A DNA stretch of 64,000 nt from Octopus vulgaris (lineage: Eukaryota): contig OX597823.1 of NCBI GenBank assembly GCA_951406725.2, forward strand, positions 86,986,001-87,050,000, written 5' to 3'. The first letter of the stretch is position 1. Each line of letters begins with the position of its first letter. The notes beneath the pieces were generated by a model. That model was not told the origin of the DNA and ran no database searches. It was given only the letters and a program-made list of their open reading frames with translations. The position numbers and the translations under genes are program-made. This document shows positions 12,601 to 62,051 of this stretch, piece after piece.

Positions 12601-13630
12601 AAGGCCGGCCCTTTGAAATACAGGTACAACAGAAACAGGAAGTAAGAGTGAGAGAAAGTTGTGGTGAAAGAGTACAGCAGTGATCACCACCATCCTGCCG
12701 GAGCCTCGTGGAGCTTTAGGTGTTTTCGCTCAATAAACACTCACAACGCCCGGTCTGGGAATCGAAACCGCGATCCTATGACCGCGAGTCCACTGCCCTA
12801 ACCACTGGGCCATTGCGCCTCCACTGAGGTTCATATACACAATTTTGATTATGATAAATAGGCAACGTAAATGTAAATTGTTGCCGTATTTCCACCTAAT
12901 ATTATTTTCAAAATGGAAAAAGCTACAGAAGTACTTAACCAAAATTGGAAGTACGTTTTCTCTGTGTGCGAGGAAACAAGAATCCTCTCATACTTTTGTT
13001 ACCTATCACACCATTTTCTCCTTTGGCTTCAAATGATATACTCGCGAAAGCAATGCTAATCTCAATGTAGGTAATAAAACATTGAAAATGGTACTGAATT
13101 TAATGCTATGCAACCTCGATTTATGAATTTAATTCGTTCGGGAAGGCCGTTTATCGCTCGAAATATTAAAAGCGAAATTATTTTTCCATAGCAATCTAAA
13201 GAGAAAGCAGAGTGAATTCGTTCGTAAAGGATGTCTACAGAGCGAAAGCTAGAATTCAACAGACGTTCTCCGGTTAATACTCCCTATTTGCCAACTGTCG
13301 TTGGCGTTTTGCGGCTTCGTTATTCAAGACAACATTTGTCACCGAGGCGCTTCATATCCGCAAAGTCATTCGTTATCAATTCTTTCGTGATGAGAGGAAT
13401 TCGTAAACTGAATTTCAACTGTGTATAAACAGAAAATGAAGCATTTACATTTGAAATCATTGAATTATACATGAATATTCTAGGCTAAACGCATTAATAC
13501 TATAAGATGCATATAAATTAATTAATGAAATCGAAAAGATGTCAAAACAAGCTTTTTTCTCCAACTTACTGGGTACTGCATAGCAGCAGGCTACCACTGC
13601 AAGGATAACCAAACCAAGAGATTTACACAT
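7285..13630 (-). CDS. Secreted S1A (trypsin/chymotrypsin-fold) serine protease, 6 coding exons, 257 aa
   Basis: Manual splicing with GT-AG sites and matching phases (1,2,1,1,0) gives an uninterrupted 774-nt ORF: [257 protein letters not shown]. Signal peptide, IVGG, TAAHC, DIAVL, GWG and GDSGG motifs are all present. Confidence 0.95.
8541..8686 (-). CDS. Protease coding exon 5
   Basis: TATCTAG acceptor, GTAAGA donor; encodes ...DKCQQY...HICAG...GKNICN (also seen in ORF 8487..8711). Confidence 0.96.
8804..8935 (-). CDS. Protease coding exon 4 (catalytic Asp, GWG)
   Basis: TTTTTCAG acceptor, GTATGT donor; encodes DNDIAVLEL...CVTAGWGST. Confidence 0.96.
9886..10007 (-). CDS. Protease coding exon 3
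   Basis: TTTCTCCAG acceptor, GTAGGT donor; 122 nt; phases 2/1 fit the neighbouring exons; encodes ...VANFGS...WVLHRQY... Confidence 0.9.
11947..12103 (-). CDS. Protease coding exon 2 (propeptide, IVGG, catalytic His)
   Basis: TTTTCAG acceptor, GTAAGT donor; encodes [10 protein letters not shown]...CGATLIS...TAAHC. Confidence 0.96.
12439..12824 (-). mobile_element. tRNA-derived SINE family C in a protease intron, perfect 12-bp TSD
   Basis: Head GGAGGCGCAATGGCCCAGTGGTTAGG..GTTTCGATTCCC; TGAGGTTCATAT at 12427-12438 and 12825-12836. Confidence 0.9.
13570..13630 (-). CDS. Protease coding exon 1 (signal peptide [20 protein letters not shown])
   Basis: ACC-ATG at 13630; hydrophobic leader; donor GTAAGT at 13569-13564; acceptor TCTCAG upstream, so the exon begins at 13644. 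Confidence 0.88.
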
Positions 13631-13755
13631 GGTGATCAAAAAACCTGAGATATGCATGCAGACAGTTTGCAAGACACATTTATAGAAATTCAGTTGCCCC
13701 CGCCTCACTCTATGTCTTTCTTTGTATATACATACATAAATCCGCAGACGCAAAA

Positions 13756-17300: not shown

Positions 17301-17576
17301 GTCTATGTTAGGTATAAGGGAATTGACTAATCTAACATTAGAGTTTATAGTAATTGTCAGACCAAGAGATCCGAAAGTTTCCGTACAACTTCATTACATA
17401 TCTAACGTTTGCCCAAATACAGGGTTGGAAATGAGTCAGCTTTCATCACAATACAGTTTAAAGTGAATAGAATAATATCTTTACTGTTCAGTTCTATATT
17501 TAAGAGATGAGGAATTACGTAAACTATTTACTTTATTTACATTTGACGGATATTTGTCTTCATCTTGTTTGTTGTT

Positions 17577-17622
17577 AACACAACATTTCGGCTGATATAC
17601 CCTCCAGCCTTCATCAGGTGTC
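17577..17622 (-). ncRNA. Minimal type I hammerhead ribozyme
   Basis: GACAC-CTGATGA-A-GGCTG(10nt)CAGCC-GAAAT-GTT-GTGTT. Confidence 0.7.
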
Positions 17623-17701
17623 TTGCGGAAATTTTAAACCTGGGTTCTCATTCCTAAGGTATTTTTCGATGCTATTAAGGTCACTGCCCGGAATCGAATA
17701 A

Positions 17702-17797
<96 letters not shown>

Positions 17798-17799
17798 TG

Positions 17800-17830
<31 letters not shown>

Positions 17831-17897
17831 CAACAACAACAACAACAACAATCGATATATACCTTAGGAATGAGATCCAAGGTTCGAAATTTCCCAC

Positions 17898-17943
17898 GAC
17901 ACCTGATGGAGGCTGGAGGGTATATCAGCTGAAACGTTGTGTT
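17898..17943 (+). ncRNA. Minimal type I hammerhead ribozyme, core-mutated
   Basis: GACAC-CTGATGG-A-GGCTG..CAGCT-GAAAC-GTT-GTGTT. Confidence 0.55.
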
Positions 17944-18154
17944 AACAACAAACAAGAAGAGGACAAATATCCGTCAAATGTAAATAATGTAAATAATGTA
18001 AATAACGTAAATAATCTTTACTGTTTTACTTATATTTGTGGAGCATTTTATGCTTGTCAAATACGAACATGAACGTCCATCCTGTCAGAGTATCTATAGT
18101 CGTATTAAAGGTTTATTTTTGGTGCAATTTTCAGTTTTTCTCGCATGTCCTTGT

Positions 18155-18959: not shown

Positions 18960-21175
18960 GAAGAGATTCCAGTGCAGTACTGTACTGTAATTTTATTAAT
19001 TGATTTATTAATTTTAGGCGTGACAATGCTTATTTTACCACAGAAATAATTAAAATCTAAAGAAAAATATAAATACCAATAGGCTGCAGAAACCCACAAT
19101 ATGCTGAGGAGCCCGCGATATAAACTTACAGGGTGGTATGGCAAGTGATTACTGCATGTACTTACAGACAAAGTAGCGTCTACATGCTGTGTACCTATGC
19201 TGGGTCGTGGTATTAGCACGCCGGGCGAAATGCTTACCGGTATTTCGTCTGCCGTTACGTTCTGAGTTCAAATACCGCCGAGGTGGACTTTGCCTTTCAT
19301 CCTTTCGGGGTCGATAAATTAAGTACCAGTTACGCATTGAGGTCGATGTAAACGACTTAATACCTATGTCTGTCCTTGTTTGTCCCCTCTATGTTTAGCC
19401 CCCTGTGGGTAATAAAGAAATAGGTATGTAAATGTGTGTTTGCGTATGTGCTTGAGTGTGAAGCGCATGTATACGTACTGTGATGTCGATCAACTGATCA
19501 GCAGTACTTAGTCGCCGGCTAGTCTTCCCTAAACGATCAACACTTAGCAGTCGGTTAGCCTTTATCTTCACCCTTAAGTTTACGACTGCTATGGTTTCCC
19601 CTTAATGACAGCAAATATCCGTTCCTTTCCCCCTCCTCTTTCTTCCCCTCACTCACTTTTCCTTCATTCTTGTAAAGTCTCTATGATGCCACTCCCACAA
19701 TTTTGATCTTATCATTTCCATTTAAATATTTCTTGACCTTATATTTCGCGATGGTCATTATATTATTTATTTATCTTTTGACCAAATGTACACACGCACT
19801 ATATATATATAACACGCACTATATAGCAGTTATATATATGTATATATACATAACAAGCATTATATATATATTCTCGTTCTTCACTTTATTATTGTTCTTA
19901 TTTTATCTTATGTCTATTGTTTGGAAAACATTAGTCACATTTCTGTGATCACTTAAGCGACTTTCTTTCCACGCTTCCTCTGGTACTGTTCTGCACGTGT
20001 TTATTTGGCAAAAATAAATAATAATTCATCCTGATATACAATAACTGCTTCAACACATGATTTCATATCAGGAATCTTGCAAAGTAAATCCATAAACGTA
20101 CGTTTTGACTGTTTTATGTTTATGAAATTTTTGTTATTTTTATTCTATACTTCCAGAACGTAGAGTTAAAATTCAGTAATGCAATGGTGACTAACACGAA
20201 AAATGCACAATTTTCTGTTTGTTTTGCTAACATATAAACTGCAAACAAATATAGACGGTCAATTATCCACCTTCAGTCTATGAATTTCTATTTTACGACA
20301 ATCGTATGCGTGTTAATGTATATTTTCCTATTATTTCCTCTGCTCTCCCGCAAAACCTCAGAGATTATTTATTTATTTTTTTTTATGCGTAATTACTTTT
20401 AACGAATATACTGTTATTTAGATGCTCTGGTTATATTACAGCAAAACAGTTGTAATGATGCTTAACTAAGGCTGGAGCTCGTGTCATGAATATAAATAGA
20501 AAACAAAAACGAGTTCAAAAATATCTTCACAAAATTTATTCATCAACGAGGTGTCAGGGTCCTATTAATGGATGGAATTCTCGTTTACCTTATTCTAAAC
20601 CAAACCTAACTCTGTTTCTCTCCTTTAGTTTGCGATTTCATCCATAACAATTTTTGCTCCATGTAATCCATTTTTACTTGTACGCTATCCAAATAGATAA
20701 AAATAAAACTCTCTAAAAAGGGGATACCTAAAATGTATTACTTCAATACATGTTAGTGACTTTAGCACTAAAAGAAAAACTACGAAGTGATTGAAATCAA
20801 AATCAAAATTGTATAAAGACAACATGGCTGCCATTCAAGTTATGTGTGTCCTGAACACTCACACACACACACACACACACGCGCACACACATGTTTATTT
20901 ACGAATGCGTGTAAAGACAGATAATGGAGGGAATGCGTTCAAGTTTCAGTCCGTGTATAATATTGTTTTCAAATTTCGACACTAAGCCAGCAATTTTGTG
21001 GGAGGTGTTTTGTTGGTTATATCGATTCCAGTGTTCAAATGCTACTTATTTTATCGAGTCCGAAAGGATAAAAGGCAAAATGGACATCGGTGGAATTTGA
21101 ACTCAGAAAGTAAAGACGGACGAATTTCCCGCTAAGCATTTTCCACGGCGTGCAGGCGATTTTACAGGCTCCCTG
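18960..21175. repeat. Segmental duplication, copy 2
   Basis: Same orientation as copy 1; 77-nt perfect match 20522-20598 = 3469-3545. Confidence 0.9.
19211..19425 (+). mobile_element. SINE family A, inserted after the segmental duplication
   Basis: Same body and tail; absent at the equivalent point (~1710) of duplication copy 1. Confidence 0.85.
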
Positions 21176-23268: not shown

Positions 23269-23378
23269 CTGTATGTAATTAATATCAGGGTAATAAATAT
23301 TTATTAGAAATGTCTACCACCAGTGGCCTAGCGTGTAAAAAAAATCATTCAGTAGACCTTATATTATTCATATAAAAA

Positions 23379-23630
23379 CAGTGTACATTTAAACACAGAA
23401 GAGGTATCCGTCATCGAATTCCTGGCACGCTAGAAGGAACAGCTAAAATCCAAATCACTATTGGGGATAAATTTCGAAGGGAATGCAAAATAAAAAAAAT
23501 AGAAGGTAAATGTTTTTATTTTTCATTCCTTTCGAAGTTTATCCCTAATAGTGGTTTGGATTTTAGCTGTTCCTTCTAGCGTGCAAGGAATCCGATGAAG
23601 GATACCTCTTCTGTGTTTAAATGTACACTG
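23379..23630. mobile_element. Fold-back (palindromic) MITE
   Basis: ~115-bp inverted arms with 8 mismatches, short spacer, CAGTG...CACTG|TA termini. Confidence 0.8.
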
Positions 23631-23652
23631 TATTTATATCTCTGTATGTATG

Positions 23653-37286: not shown

Positions 37287-37480
37287 CAGTTCTATATTTA
37301 AGAGATGTGGAATTATGTACATTATTTATATTATTTACCTTATTTACATTTGACGGATATTTGTCCTCATCTTGTTTGTTGTTAACACGTTTCGGCTGAT
37401 ATACCCACCAAACTCCATCAGATGTTTTGGAGAAATTTCGAAGCTGGGTTCTCATTCCTAAGGTATTTTTCGATGTTATT

Positions 37481-37573
<93 letters not shown>

Positions 37574-37606
37574 GTTGTTGTTGTTGTCATTATTATTATA
37601 TGTATA

Positions 37607-37638
<32 letters not shown>

Positions 37639-37680
37639 CATTGTTCAGCTCACTGCTTGAAATCGAACTCGGAATCTTGG
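37287..37680 (-). mobile_element. Family D element with long internal (AAT)n and degenerate hammerhead (37384-37426)
   Basis: B box GAGTTCGATTTC near 37670, (AAT)n, ATCGAAAAATACCTTAGGAATGAGAACCC, 3' end AAATATAGAACTG at 37287. Confidence 0.8.
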
Positions 37681-39961: not shown

Positions 39962-40583
39962 CGATTGCAGAAATAAATAAGATCCTTACACTTTTAACGT
40001 TAGATCCCTCTAAGTTGTGAAATTTTAATTCGAGATTGAAGATAAAATATTCAGAAATAACAAAGGAAAAATCATGAAATGCAGCATTCATAGCTACAAA
40101 TGCAACGTGAAATAGTCGTTAAAGTATTATTATGGTGAAGACTACATTTCTTCAGGAATATTGGTTGAAGTAAAGAACCGACATGCAAAGGAAGAAAACA
40201 ATATCTACCCGTCCAATTGTACATTTACATATTCTTCCTTAAATTCATTGTTGAATCCTAAGTGTGGGGAGCTAAATCATATTTTACAAATTACATCAAC
40301 TTCATTGTAACATTTCCAACTACTATGATTCGTTGAAAGGCTACTTTTGATGGTCAAAACTGTCTTCAGGGTGTTTTTTTATATTTTTTGGTAAATTCAT
40401 CCCACTTTAACAAGTCCACAAACCAAAATACTATATATTCTTTCATTTGTTTCCAATCATTAGACTGCGGCCATTCTGTAGCACCTACTTGAAATTTTTT
40501 TTCCAACAAATCGTTCCTGCATTATTTACATTATTTACATAATTTACATTCGACGGATGTTTGTCCTCATCTTGTTTGTTGTT

Positions 40584-40629
40584 AACACAACGTTTCGGCT
40601 CATATACCCTCCAGCCTTCATCAGGTGTC
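40584..40629 (-). ncRNA. Minimal type I hammerhead ribozyme, fully canonical core
   Basis: GACAC-CTGATGA-A-GGCT..AGCC-GAAAC-GTT-GTGTT; palindromic AACGTT stem III; GUU cleavage triplet. Confidence 0.78.
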
Positions 40630-40767
40630 TTGGGGAAAATCTCTAACCTGGGTTCTCATTCCTAAGGTATTTTTCGATGCTATTATTATTATTGTTAATG
40701 TTCCGAGTTCGATTCCAAGCAGTGACCTGATCGCCAACAACAACAATAATAATAATGATGATAATAA

Positions 40768-40854
<87 letters not shown>

Positions 40855-40912
40855 CTTCAACAACAACGAAAAATACCTTAGGAATGAGAACCCAGGTTCG
40901 AAATTTCCTCAA

Positions 40913-40958
40913 GACACCTGAAGAAGGCTGGAGGTTATGTCAGCCGAAACATTGTGTT
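40913..40958 (+). ncRNA. Minimal type I hammerhead ribozyme (stem III variant)
   Basis: GACAC-CTGAAGA-A-GGCTG..CAGCC-GAAAC-ATT-GTGTT. Confidence 0.65.
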
Positions 40959-41043
40959 AACAAACAAGATGAGGACAAGTATCCGTCGAATTTAAATAAT
41001 GTAAATAATGTACAGAAATCCTCATCTCTTAAATATAGAACTG

Positions 41044-41192
41044 AAATCGTTCCTAGTGTTTAGTTTTTCAAATCCGGTATTTGTTTTCTATCGGACTCTT
41101 TTACCAAACCGCTAAGTGACGTAGATACACCAACGTCGGTTGTCAAGCGGTGCTGGAGAACAAACACAGACACAAAGACACCCACCTGCACG

Positions 41193-44960: not shown

Positions 44961-45241
44961 CACAAACACATACACACGCACGTACTCACATATTAATGCT
45001 TGTTTTTATGTTCACTTATAATTAAAACAGATTTTTCATTAACCGATGGCGTATACATTGTAAAACATTGTGAGTCAAGAATTTTTCATTGGGTTTCAGT
45101 CTTCTAAACATTATGGATCTCCATTGCTTCATATATCTATACAATAATGAAGAAAGCTACTAATAAATTAGTTTGGAGTGTGTAATTTTACACTGTCTAA
45201 AAAATTCTTAAAAATTGTAAATATAACTTTTTTTTTTATAA

Positions 45242-45640
45242 AGGTGGCAAGCCGGCAGAAACGTTAGCCCGCCGGGCGAAATACGTAGCACTATTTTGTC
45301 TGCGGTTACGTTCTGAGTTCAAATTCCGCCGAGGTCGACTTTGCCTTTCATCCATTCAGGGTCGATAAATTAAGTACCAGTTACGCACTAAAGTCGATGT
45401 AATTGACTTAATCCGTTTGTCTGTCCTTGTTTGTCCCCTCTGTGTTTAGCCCCTTGTGGTTAGTAAAGAAATTGGTATTTCCTCTGTCTTTACGTGCTGA
45501 ATTCAAAATCCGCCGACGTAGATTTTGCCTTTTATCCTTTCGGGGTAGATAAATTAAGTACCATTTGCGTACTAGGGTCGATCTAGTCGTCTGCCCCCAC
45601 CTCCCACAAAATTTCGGGCCTTGTTCCTAGAGTAGAGAAG
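45242..45640 (+). mobile_element. SINE family A dimer (tail 1 unit + tail 2 unit)
   Basis: Full head GGTGGCAAGCCGGCAGAAACGTTAG; two bodies. Confidence 0.9.
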
Positions 45641-55326: not shown

Positions 55327-56145
55327 TACGAGGAGGTAGCCAAAAGTAACCCTTAAAGTTTTCTGTGAGACAAGTCAATTGTAATTCAGACTTCCATCGC
55401 TAGAAACCACTTGATGCGGCCCTCAGGCATAAGTCTGTCGACCGGCGTTTCGTCGCAGTCATGCTGCCACGCGGTGCGTATTTGTTTTGCAGTGCTTCTC
55501 CCCACTTTCTCGATTTCCGCGAAGGCTGAAACGAAGGAACACAATACTTCCGTGAAATTCTGTGTTCTGCAAGGGAAAACGGTGAGCCAGACTGCTGTCA
55601 TGCTTCAGAAAGCTTACAAGGAAGCTGCCATGAGCAAAACAGCAACTGTACATGTGGCTTCCACGCTTTAGGTGTGGTCATTTGTTGCTTGAAAACCAAC
55701 CTTGTGGAGGGCGACCGCCCGAAAGAATGAAAACATCACGAAAATTCATGAACTGATGTGCGGGGACAGTCGCCGAACAATTGACGAATTTGATATAACT
55801 GGTGTGTTCTGGAGCTCCTGCCAACGAACATTGAGCGAGGAATTGCTCACGGAAGATTAAAAGCAATCACGACTGAATGCCTGCCGTGAACTGAAATAAC
55901 CTTTGGAAGTTAATCCGGACCATTTTTTCTTTTAAAGGCCGTCACTGGTGCTACGGAAAGCTGGTGTTATGGAATTTGCAGACGAGGAAGAGGTGAAGAT
56001 AAAAACGCCGGAGGCGTTAAAAGACATCACTTCGCAAGAGTTCCAGGATTGCTTTGAAGAGTGGAAAACGCGTCTGGACCGAGGCATTGCTACAAGTGGA
56101 GAATACTTTGAAAGCGATAAAAGGTGTATACTAAGAGAATAAAAT
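55327..56145 (+). mobile_element. Internally deleted mariner transposon
   Basis: TACGAGGAGGTAGCCAAAAGT TIR-like start; N-terminal VKFCV..GKT..T..ML..AY..AMSKT..GRP; C-terminal FQDCFEEWKTRLDRGIATSGEYFE. Confidence 0.85.
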
Positions 56146-56148
56146 GAT

Positions 56149-56685
56149 CTTTTCTTCTCTAGGCACAAGGCAAGAAATTTTAGCGGGGAGGGGACCAGTC
56201 GATTTGATCGACCCTTGTGTGCAAGTAGTACCTAATTTATCGATCAAGAAAGGATGAAAGGCAAAGTGGACCTCGGCGGAATTTGAACTAAGAATATAAA
56301 GACAGACGGAACACAGCTAAGCATTTTGCCTGGCGTGCTAAGGTTTCTTACTTCTGTATGGTCCACAAGGGGCTAAACATAGAGTGGACAAACAAGGATA
56401 GACAAACGGATTAAGTCGATTCCATCAACCCCAGTCGTAACTGGTACTTAATTTATCGACCCCGAAAGGATGAAAGGCAAAGTCGACCTCGGCGGAATTT
56501 TCAGTTGCTTGAACTAAAAGTCGGAGGGGGACGGGATAATCTAACAATTTATTATAAAAGCAGGTAGTAATTTTACCTTGTTCTTATTCTTAATGCAAGT
56601 TTCCTCGGCAGACTTTGAACTCAGACGAAACACCGCTAAACGTTCCGCCCGGCGTGCTAACGTTTCTGCCAGCTCGCCGCCTTCT
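56149..56685 (-). mobile_element. SINE family A dimer plus head fragment
   Basis: Reverse-complement bodies GAAAGGATGAAAGGCAAAGTCGACCTCGGCGGAATTT. Confidence 0.85.
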
Positions 56686-60186: not shown

Positions 60187-60792
60187 TGTATGTATGTATG
60201 TATGTATGTATGTATGTATGTATGTATGTATGTTTGTATGTATGTTTGTATGTATACAAAAAAGGACAACAAAACATTCAGACAGACGATACAGAGGAAA
60301 CAAGGACGGGTCATTGGGAGTTATCTATCCTCAGTCGAGTTCCGGATTATCTTTACATACATACAATTCTTTTATTCATTTATTCTTTTTCTTGTTTCAG
60401 TTATTTCACTGCGGCCATACTGTAGCACTGCATTAAATGGTTTCGGTTCTCAAGTGATGATGGGAAGACAAACACAGATGTAAACACACACACACACACA
60501 AACGACGGGCGGCTTTCAGTTTCCGTCCACCAAATCCACTCACAAGGTTTATTCCAGGAATATAGATTAGGTGGTTGGACAGGTCAGTGTTTAGTAGTAA
60601 AAGAAGGTATATGTGTTGGAATGTATATATATATGAATATATTAGACATATATATAAGGGATATAATAAATTTCATGCAAAGAGCTGTAAGACCTTTTAT
60701 TTATAAATGTTCTAAAATCTTCACAGCCTTGGGTTTTTTTTTATCTCATTCTGAAAAAATATTTTTGTATATATATACAAACGCTAATATAT

Positions 60793-61020
60793 GCGGCGAC
60801 CTGGCAGAAACGTTAGCACGCCGGGCGAAATGCGTAGCCGTATTTCGTCTGCCGTTATGTTCTGAGTTCAAATTCCGAGGTCGACTTTGCCTTTCATCCT
60901 TTCGGGGTCGATAAATTAAGTACCAGTTACGCACTAGGGTCGATGTAATCGACTTAATCCCTTTGTCTGTCCTTGTTTATCTCCTCTGTGTTTAGCCCCT
61001 TGTGGGTAGTAAAGAAATAG
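60793..61020 (+). mobile_element. SINE family A monomer
   Basis: Near-consensus head, body and tail 1. Confidence 0.9.
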
Positions 61021-61178
61021 ATACATGACCTACGTTGAACTCCTTATTCACATAATCACCGAATCTGGAGCTTAAGTATGGTCTATCCATAGCATTTACT
61101 CAGCATTACCTGACACCTTTGGGCCTCACTGACACCATTAGCTCTCATAACCTCTCTCACTCTCTGTCTGTCTGTCTG

Positions 61179-61292
<114 letters not shown>

Positions 61293-61655
61293 TATGAGAG
61301 CTAATATATATATATATATATAAAGAATTTACGGTATTCTATCTAAACTAAAAGCTTATCAATATTTGTGATGCTTAAGCTGGCAAGCTGGCAAAATCGT
61401 TAGCCATTACGTCCGTTACGCTCTGAGTTCAAATTCGGCTGAAGTAGACTTTGCCTTTCATTTTTCCGGTGTAGATAAAACATATACCAGTTTGAGGACT
61501 GTAATTGATGTATTCGTCCTACCTCACTTCCCGGAATTTATTGGCGTTGTGTTAAAATCTGAAACCAAGATGTGCAATAATATTTAACATATTAATTATT
61601 GTATTGTGCTGGTTAGAATACGATTGTACTCTATTATTTCTATCTATCATCATTA

Positions 61656-62051
61656 GGCTGCGAGCTGGCAGAAACGTTAGCGCACCGGGCGAAATGCTTA
61701 GTGGTATTGCGTCTGTCGATACGTTATGAGTTCAAATTCCGCCGAGGTCGACTTTGCCTTTCATCCTTTCGGGGTCGATTAAATAAGTACCAGTTACGCA
61801 ATAGGGTCGATATAATTGACTTAATCCGTGTGTCTGTTCTTGTTTGTCCTCTCTGTGTTTAACCCCTTGTGGGTAGTAAAGGAATAGGTTTTTCGTCTGT
61901 CTTTACGTTCCGAGTTCAAATTCCTCCGAGATCGACTTTGCCTTTCATCCTTTCGGAGTCGATAAATTAAGTACCAGTTGCTTACTGGAGTTGATCTAAT
62001 CGACTGGCCCTCTCCCCATAAATTTCGAGCTATGTGCATAGAGTAGAAAAG
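61656..62051 (+). mobile_element. SINE family A dimer
   Basis: Unit with tail 1 joined to a head-truncated unit with tail 2. Confidence 0.9.

Follow-up and report, generated by a model that had tools for sequence, protein, structure and literature searches.

An inverted insertion in the Octopus vulgaris genome derives from an abundant Penelope-like element whose end repeat bears a tRNA-like head and may be read by RNA polymerase III

Positions 17477..18025 of the 64,000-nt stretch of Octopus vulgaris DNA analysed here (GCA_951406725.2, contig OX597823.1, positions 86,986,001 to 87,050,000, forward strand; hereafter the window) hold two related sequences in opposite orientation, with a long microsatellite between them. 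This raises the question of whether the pair arrived in one insertion or in two, and to what kind of element it belongs. The original prediction, made from the letters of the window, was of an inverted 'hammerhead dimer' that had inserted in one event, the monomer being a SINE moved by Penelope machinery. We are highly confident that the locus consists of two head-to-head pieces of the pseudo-LTR (pLTR) of an abundant, protein-coding Penelope-like element (PLE), enclosed in a 12-bp duplication, and that it is most likely the product of one insertion. It is ordinary for its class, the usual footprint of a Penelope-type insertion.

The unit is flanked by the 12-mer ATCTTTACTGTT, present at 17477-17488 on the tail side and, as a 100% match, at 18014-18025 on the side of the inverted arm, with no third site on either strand of the window; the predicted target-site duplication (TSD) is thus there as described. 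The arms themselves were likewise correctly seen as head-to-head copies, and are 90.4% identical over 146 nt when one is inverted (17525-17670 against 17851-17995). The main arm (17489..17698, minus strand) is a 5'-truncated pLTR that comprises the B-box end of a tRNA-like head, a short AAT stretch, the start of the open reading frame (ORF), a hammerhead motif, 9-nt repeats and a tail. The complete 3' end claimed for it at 17489 is the fixed end of the family: a 28-nt piece of this outer end has 4,040 matches in the 2.8-Gb genome (control, 0), and in contigs from all four sequencing runs the loose ends of family copies pile up at 17489 as against 17525/17529/17533. The tail (17489..17524, minus strand) consists of ~36 extra nucleotides found at the outer end of this arm only, and in full elements reads on in frame into the ORF. 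An ATG at 17649..17651 (minus strand) opens the element's reading frame and is its probable start codon, the frame being homologous to the N-terminus of a full-length protein from another assembly (P0004). A B-box remnant had been placed at 17670-17698; the remnant is real, its letters lying more narrowly at 17690-17698 within a 21-nt 3' remnant of the head (17678..17698, minus strand), and the focal copy has no A-box.

The arms meet at two letters common to both (17697..17698), a junction read directly by comparison with heads elsewhere in the family. The (AAT)n run is indeed situated between the copies, not as a spacer: the (AAT)n(AAC)n tract at 17697..17851 (plus strand), made up of (AAT)43.7 at 17697-17827 and (AAC)8.7 at 17826-17851, is the element's internal microsatellite, carried as the 5' part of the inverted arm and located between head and core in other copies. 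The rest of that arm is a pLTR core without tail (17852..18013, plus strand) which terminates in 9-nt AATGTAAAT repeats. Its 3' end had been read as a truncation, and this did not stand, the end being the one at which a whole tail-less class of arms ends (see below) and not a random break. The arms differ in 13 of 138 columns and very unequally in (AAT)n length; both are of the majority subfamily type and have zero minor alleles in common, which makes them uninformative alone, so that the single-event claim for this locus rests on the duplication together with the rule seen across the family.

Both arms hold a hammerhead motif, at 17577..17622 on the minus strand, with the ACGU palindrome altered to AUGU, and at 17898..17943 on the plus strand, with core CUGAUGG, in which A9 has become G. 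In the family the motif has a helix I of 5 bp, CUGA(U/A)GA, an unpaired A, a helix II of 6 bp, GAAA and the palindromic ACGU, and by this consensus match is a minimal type I hammerhead, its self-cleavage being predicted. Across 11 copies 96.9% of cells are paired, against 19-53% in slid controls, with zero compensatory changes, and the core bases are 90-100% conserved; the sole variable one is position 7 (T 72%, A 26%), which is also a third codon position. Rfam returned no hammerhead or tRNA match for the window at the gathering threshold or for eight loci at E up to 5, giving just microsatellite-driven miRNA matches, and the minimum-energy folds of single arms are no better than shuffles (z -1.5 to +0.6), as expected of a minimal hammerhead. 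The motif in the predicted 'hammerhead dimer' thus holds up and the word dimer is misleading, since the two motifs lie on opposite strands and one RNA would contain one sense copy, buried in duplex. Such a read-through RNA is predicted to form one long duplex (-223.5 kcal/mol, z -22), in line with the double-stranded RNA foreseen for transcription through the locus.

What, then, is the monomer? Upstream of one family match (L005) we found a retroelement coding fragment, and a search with it returned 30 loci, in all of which 29 nt of spacer come after the ORF stop, with head, (AAT)n and core next in 29 of them; this set was partly selected for the head, as the query held ~30 nt of it. A search free of that bias, with a distant protein, gave 24 loci of the family, with the head after the ORF in at least 15. 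The ORF frame contains a reverse transcriptase domain (Pfam RVT_1, E 5.8e-08). One copy (L186) shows head and (AAT)n, after which core and tail share the frame of the ORF as far as the reverse transcriptase, with one stop in ~430 codons; the N-terminus so encoded, the hammerhead-encoded stretch included, is 39% identical to P0004 over 198 aa (E 6e-36). Another (L176) is an ORF-pLTR-ORF tandem, with ORF end, head, core and ORF start in succession; in both, the pLTR of a partial tandem overlaps the ORF start. Because the head follows the ORF stop and hammerhead and tail encode the first ORF residues, the supposed SINE monomer is, judged by its sequence, the pLTR of an autonomous PLE ~2.8 kb long. 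Mobilisation by Penelope machinery was correctly foreseen, as pLTR, RVT_1 domain, inverted arm, tail and TSD all indicate, while the SINE mobilised in trans gives way to this element. None of the family copies fetched has an intact ORF. The -60 pattern of the ORF (227 matches) proved to be a minority variant, present in one of 14 spanning copies, and useless as a control.

In the C-terminal frame the motif YSIPCSCG..Y.GET.R..R..EH can be read directly, which we take to be that of a PLE endonuclease, and the linker between reverse transcriptase and endonuclease looks short and free of a cysteine-rich block; by these motifs the family presumably belongs to the Penelope/Poseidon clade. Pfam gave no GIY-YIG hit on the family's own endonuclease frame, and homologues of that frame had RVT_1 plus PF26215/PF28514, one of them with a weak GIY-YIG match (E 0.009). 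The spacer 5' of the head (L039:1680-1705 and other copies) imperfectly matches the first 10 nt of the head in reverse complement, which looks as though head and ORF were once linked through an old inversion junction. Among phenylalanine codons of the family's A-rich ORF segments 296 are TTC and 91 TTT; a second PLE family is biased alike, so this is not specific. That second family (L255-L260) is much younger, with stop-free frames of up to ~1,100 codons and a pyrimidine-rich sense strand; it has a cysteine-rich linker, presumably Neptune-like, and its own hammerhead-like motif, without the tRNA head of the focal family.

The pLTR starts with what appears to be a tRNA-Arg-like head containing an A-box and a B-box. 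Its A-box matches the SINE consensus TGGCNNAGTGG in the accessible text of PMC8969392; among 80 A-box hits a B-box follows in 59, in 53 at a spacing of 33 nt, so that the family shows the box spacing and tRNA similarity of a tRNA-derived SINE, of which the focal copy keeps the B-box remnant. Compared with 30 tRNA loci of the genome (an incomplete set of about seven types), the head is best matched by the Arg(TCG) tRNA (z 10.6); ARAGORN called no tRNA in 10 loci. Copy 5' ends pile up 10-20-fold at the start of the head. When 80 arms were followed into the head from its 3' end, 24 stopped at head positions 38-95, 44 at 10-37 and 12 passed, and the rate of ends per nucleotide was 0.056 at head 22-37, 0.0057 inside the head and 0.0024-0.0028 upstream. 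Genome-wide 18-mer counts fall from 6,652 (head 63-80) through 3,685 (head 30-47) to 1,025 (spacer), and the spacer 18-mer is better conserved (13/21) than the head patterns (16/54, 24/78) despite its fewer matches.

We tentatively suggest, at somewhat short of an even chance, that the pLTR of an autonomous coding PLE has come to begin with a tRNA-Arg-derived RNA polymerase III (Pol III) promoter, and that the element in this way yields its own SINE-like progeny without a separate SINE. Transcripts from the head would traverse a sense strand of 2.8 kb in which no T4 terminators are conserved; priming within them, at the upstream tail, would copy just the first ~300 nt, and SINE-like progeny would accumulate by tens of thousands. 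The focal copy, being without an A-box, should not itself initiate such transcripts. On the sense strand no T4 run is common to half of the copies, against 2.8 expected from codon resampling, an absence with P ~0.06 for one ancestral sequence; pooled T4 counts (33 against 93 and 10 against 46 expected) overstate the significance because the copies are not independent. The second PLE family, without the head, has T4 counts near expectation (8 against 9.7 and 6 against 8.2); L245 and L247, which had been wrongly oriented, do not enter the T4 figures.

A Pol III start at the head would fit the pile-up of 5' ends but is not proved by it, as a hairpin lies at the same place. That the pile-up is due solely to this hairpin, or to a Pol II start, with the tRNA-like head a passive relic in the 3' UTR, is a reading to which we give very nearly an even chance. 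Fold-back junctions at the head palindrome are common, palindromes at pLTR 5' ends have been described (PMC3846280, accessible text), and the P value for T4 runs is just that given above. The hairpin accounts less well for the ends themselves: of the 44 at head 10-37, 17 look folded back and 27 do not, and seven of the 80 arms begin precisely at tRNA position +1. In addition, the stop rate there is ~10 times that inside the larger tRNA-like structure, and the A and B boxes stand at the right distance from the boundary.

Whichever polymerase reads the element, the way in which its copies come to lie in inverted pairs can be studied across the family, which numbers ~70,000 loci genome-wide (range 23,000-163,000; five loci in twenty evenly chosen 10-kb stretches, 200 kb). 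For this we used the first 90 of 100 matches listed to the tail, all on contig 1, chosen by intact tail and not by 5' structure; one of the 90 (L151) has just 328 nt of upstream flank. An antisense core arm lies within 1,400 nt upstream in 58 of the 90 (50 under a stricter chaining rule), and among 30 loci with equal flanks it is upstream in 25 and downstream in one (Fisher p 1e-10; chance ~2%). The outer ends are duplicated in 33 of the 58 inverted loci, mostly over 10-14 nt, as against a mean of 1.4 and a maximum of 4 under shuffled pairing; at the other 25 a clear duplication is missing. Inverted arms are thus far commoner than chance, as the prediction required. Fifty-two of the 58 inverted arms end at core 136-159, within the 9-nt repeats, and one has the tail. 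The family therefore shows three of the features of EN+ PLEs, namely an inverted 5'-truncated copy at the 5' junction, a one-ended tail of 30-40 nt and a TSD.

Paired arms also share subfamily alleles: at column 59 the pairs are TT in 27 loci, AA in 10 and other in 4; at column 128, AA in 40, GG in 8 and other in 4; and at column 130, AA in 31, TT in 6 and other in 3. Over 44 loci the per-column difference is 0.087 within pairs and 0.104 between arms of different pairs, and none of 2,000 permutations gave a value as low as that within pairs. One insertion event is well supported by polarity, duplications and these common alleles. In 50 chained loci the inverted arm extends further 5' in 26 and the main arm in 12; the inverted arm is thus more than a mere duplicate of the present main arm. 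Four near-identical decayed copies (L036, L043, L059 and L060, contig C31) share both deletions and flanking sequence, several of them lying on a single small contig, and are probably a segmental or satellite amplification. L276 and L277 likewise seem to represent a single copy twice.

From these features we infer priming on both strands followed by joining through microhomology. The element's endonuclease would cut the two target strands ~12 nt apart, and reverse transcription would be primed on each, once at the tail end and once at a tail-less site ~36 nt further in, both cDNAs being templated by RNA from one source element. Two short cDNAs would stop early and be joined by their 3' ends via a few shared letters, with gap filling then creating the duplication; afterwards the arms would decay separately, to ~4-6% each from the family majority, and shift in (AAT)n length. 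The head probably marks the start of the template RNA, which would be why many copies look like SINEs, and the focal copy, cut inside the B-box, would be left without such a promoter. An anole PLE has been described that cuts and extends both strands, with two reverse transcription start sites bounding the tail (PMC11167929, accessible text). For Adineta vaga, an inverted shorter pLTR, a tail on one arm, a TSD and a pLTR coding for the ORF start are reported in the parts of PMC3846280 available. The inverted tail-less arm and the duplication are described for the Penelope class there and in PMC4209133, and the overall inverted structure is given as typical in PMC8557442 and PMC8969392, as far as their accessible text extends.

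A single event could also proceed by fold-back, in which a single cDNA or antisense template primes itself and copies itself, later deletions shaping the arms. Self-priming on an antisense template is favoured in the accessible text of PMC3846280, and the alleles common to both arms would fit it. Fold-back does operate in the family, where the head palindrome is the site of a perfect hairpin junction, with the element's loop letters, in 364 loci, and the folded-back ends at head 10-37 agree with this. As the origin of the focal insertion we regard it as possible and rather unlikely: the junction here is not at the palindrome, inverted arms often hold sequence missing from the main arm (in L144, as much as 1.6 kb of ORF), and fold-back alone leaves the fixed tail-less outer end unexplained.

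In the original reading, the unit would be a separate, non-autonomous tRNA SINE that has borrowed a Penelope 3' end and is copied from short source loci of its own. The SINE-like A-box and the B-box spacing given above would suit such a SINE, as would the pile-up at the head, most head-reaching copies beginning at its 5' edge, and in 40 head-selected copies the spacer or ORF lies upstream in just nine. The solo copies point the other way: beyond the tail they lack the downstream ORF sequence that is required in vitro by the anole element (PMC11167929, accessible text). Within the same 40 copies we found no separate SINE body behind the head: 29 lead into the same core and the rest into (AAT)n only or unrelated sequence, and neither a SINE-specific body nor a deletion was seen. 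Starting at the tail, copies extend unbroken into the ORF, the longest reaching 1,653 nt upstream of its stop, and a unit distinct from its partner in all except the tail is not what we observed, every part of the monomer being collinear with the autonomous element. We therefore consider a separate SINE improbable. Two independent insertions back to back by chance, the 12-mers being a duplication of one of them or fortuitous, we reject as highly improbable: the focal arms differ by 9.4% with no minor allele in common and the family is dense, but that difference is close to the paired-arm mean of 8.7%, and at the family level polarity, outer duplications and allele sharing contradict it.

The pLTR of an autonomous PLE, as we read the monomer, has its closest known parallel in Pen2a_Av of A. 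vaga (PMC3846280, accessible text), which likewise has an inverted shorter pLTR, a tail on one arm, a TSD around the whole unit, a pLTR that encodes the ORF start, and a palindrome at the pLTR 5' end. The tail is 31 nt in Pen2a_Av and ~36 nt in the octopus family and the TSD 8-10 and ~12, respectively; its pLTR is TATA/Inr-like, whereas that of the octopus family starts with tRNA-like A and B boxes and then (AAT)n. Poseidon_Ac of the green anole (PAc; PMC11167929) shares the overlap of hammerhead and ORF start, the two reverse transcription start sites bounding the tail, and the cutting and extension of both strands; a tRNA-like head, present in the octopus family, is not mentioned in the accessible text, and the anole element has been tested biochemically while the octopus family is known from its sequence. 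The minimal type I hammerheads of animal PLEs (PMC4209133) resemble ours in the short helix I, long helix II, unpaired base before helix II and palindromic helix III, and occur as pairs 100-700 bp apart on opposite strands, the focal motifs differing in that both have lesions; the accessible text of that paper mentions neither tRNA nor polymerase III.

Small-RNA-derived Pol III promoters in retroelement terminal repeats are known from Cassandra, Helenus and Ajax (TRIMp3; PMC10886601, accessible text). These are short non-autonomous LTR elements whose autonomous partners are argued to need Pol II, whereas the octopus boxes lie in the repeat of a 2.8-kb coding PLE. The SINE-like Sm-alpha/Sj-alpha elements of Schistosoma (PMC6765202) also have a Pol III promoter followed by a hammerhead, and are non-coding tandem repeats for which the accessible text states no parent ORF; the octopus unit, in contrast, belongs to an autonomous element, and its insertions are inverted pairs. 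Non-LTR retrozymes, which are non-coding head-to-tail tandem repeats with a hammerhead in each (10.64898/2026.07.22.740005, accessible text), were ruled out, the octopus copies being mostly single or inverted, and coding, and so was a MITE or fold-back DNA transposon, as the ends are asymmetric and junctions vary between loci. We found no description of a tRNA-headed PLE in the literature searched (Repbase/Dfam, subscription journals and supplements lying outside that scope); PMC13282606 and PMC6962438 give Penelope-like and SINE classes without such a structure in their accessible text, and their supplements may hold the family. The residual novelty lies at the family level, in a tRNA-derived head on a PLE pLTR, whose absence from print is not thereby established.

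Should the head function as a Pol III promoter, a coding retrotransposon would be read by a polymerase thought to be limited to short non-autonomous elements, as PMC10886601 argues for LTR elements. This would raise the question of how uncapped RNA gets translated, and would offer a way for SINE-like repeats to arise from an autonomous element. The thousands of paired arms with subfamily markers, which appear to have a common source and independent stops, make the mechanism of PLE inversion testable. Automated repeat libraries are likely to list such an element under three entries: tRNA SINE, microsatellite and Penelope.

At the focal site, contigs of three organisms (A, B and C) run from unique flank into 23-25 nt of tail, below our 31-letter rule for bridging, and none of them shows an empty site; organism D has no cover at 17332-17466, next to the site. 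Since the contigs run from flank into tail, they suggest that the insertion is old and shared among organisms A, B and C. The neighbouring gene appears to encode a trypsin-like serine protease (7272-13680, minus strand), with a trypsin-like exon at 8487-8762 (minus strand; Pfam E 6e-04, just under the cut-off), a TATA-like motif near 13684, by the protease start, and a putative start codon at 13630 (minus strand) that opens a signal-peptide-like sequence. This putative start codon lies ~3.8 kb from the element, where the original prediction had set ~3 kb to the transcription start of the protease.

Elsewhere in the window, a second inverted pair of the family lies at 40521-41044, with an 11-nt duplication and its junction in the B-box region, and single arms occur at 37287-37660 and 2530-2772, the latter with the full tRNA-like head and no tail. 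A 900-nt segment occurs in two copies (3221-4103 and 20261-21169, 84% identity), for which a local duplication spanning the surroundings of the protease gene and a longer repeat are both conceivable. A further abundant repeat, with motifs resembling A and B boxes, is found at 860-1409, 19213-19426, 45215-45640, 56138-56500 and 60759-62051, partly as 184-nt tandem units and with some inverted pairs (56138-56500). Finally, self-complementary stretches outside the family occur at 23370-23639 (270 nt) and 61137-61305 (170 nt), with 89% identity.
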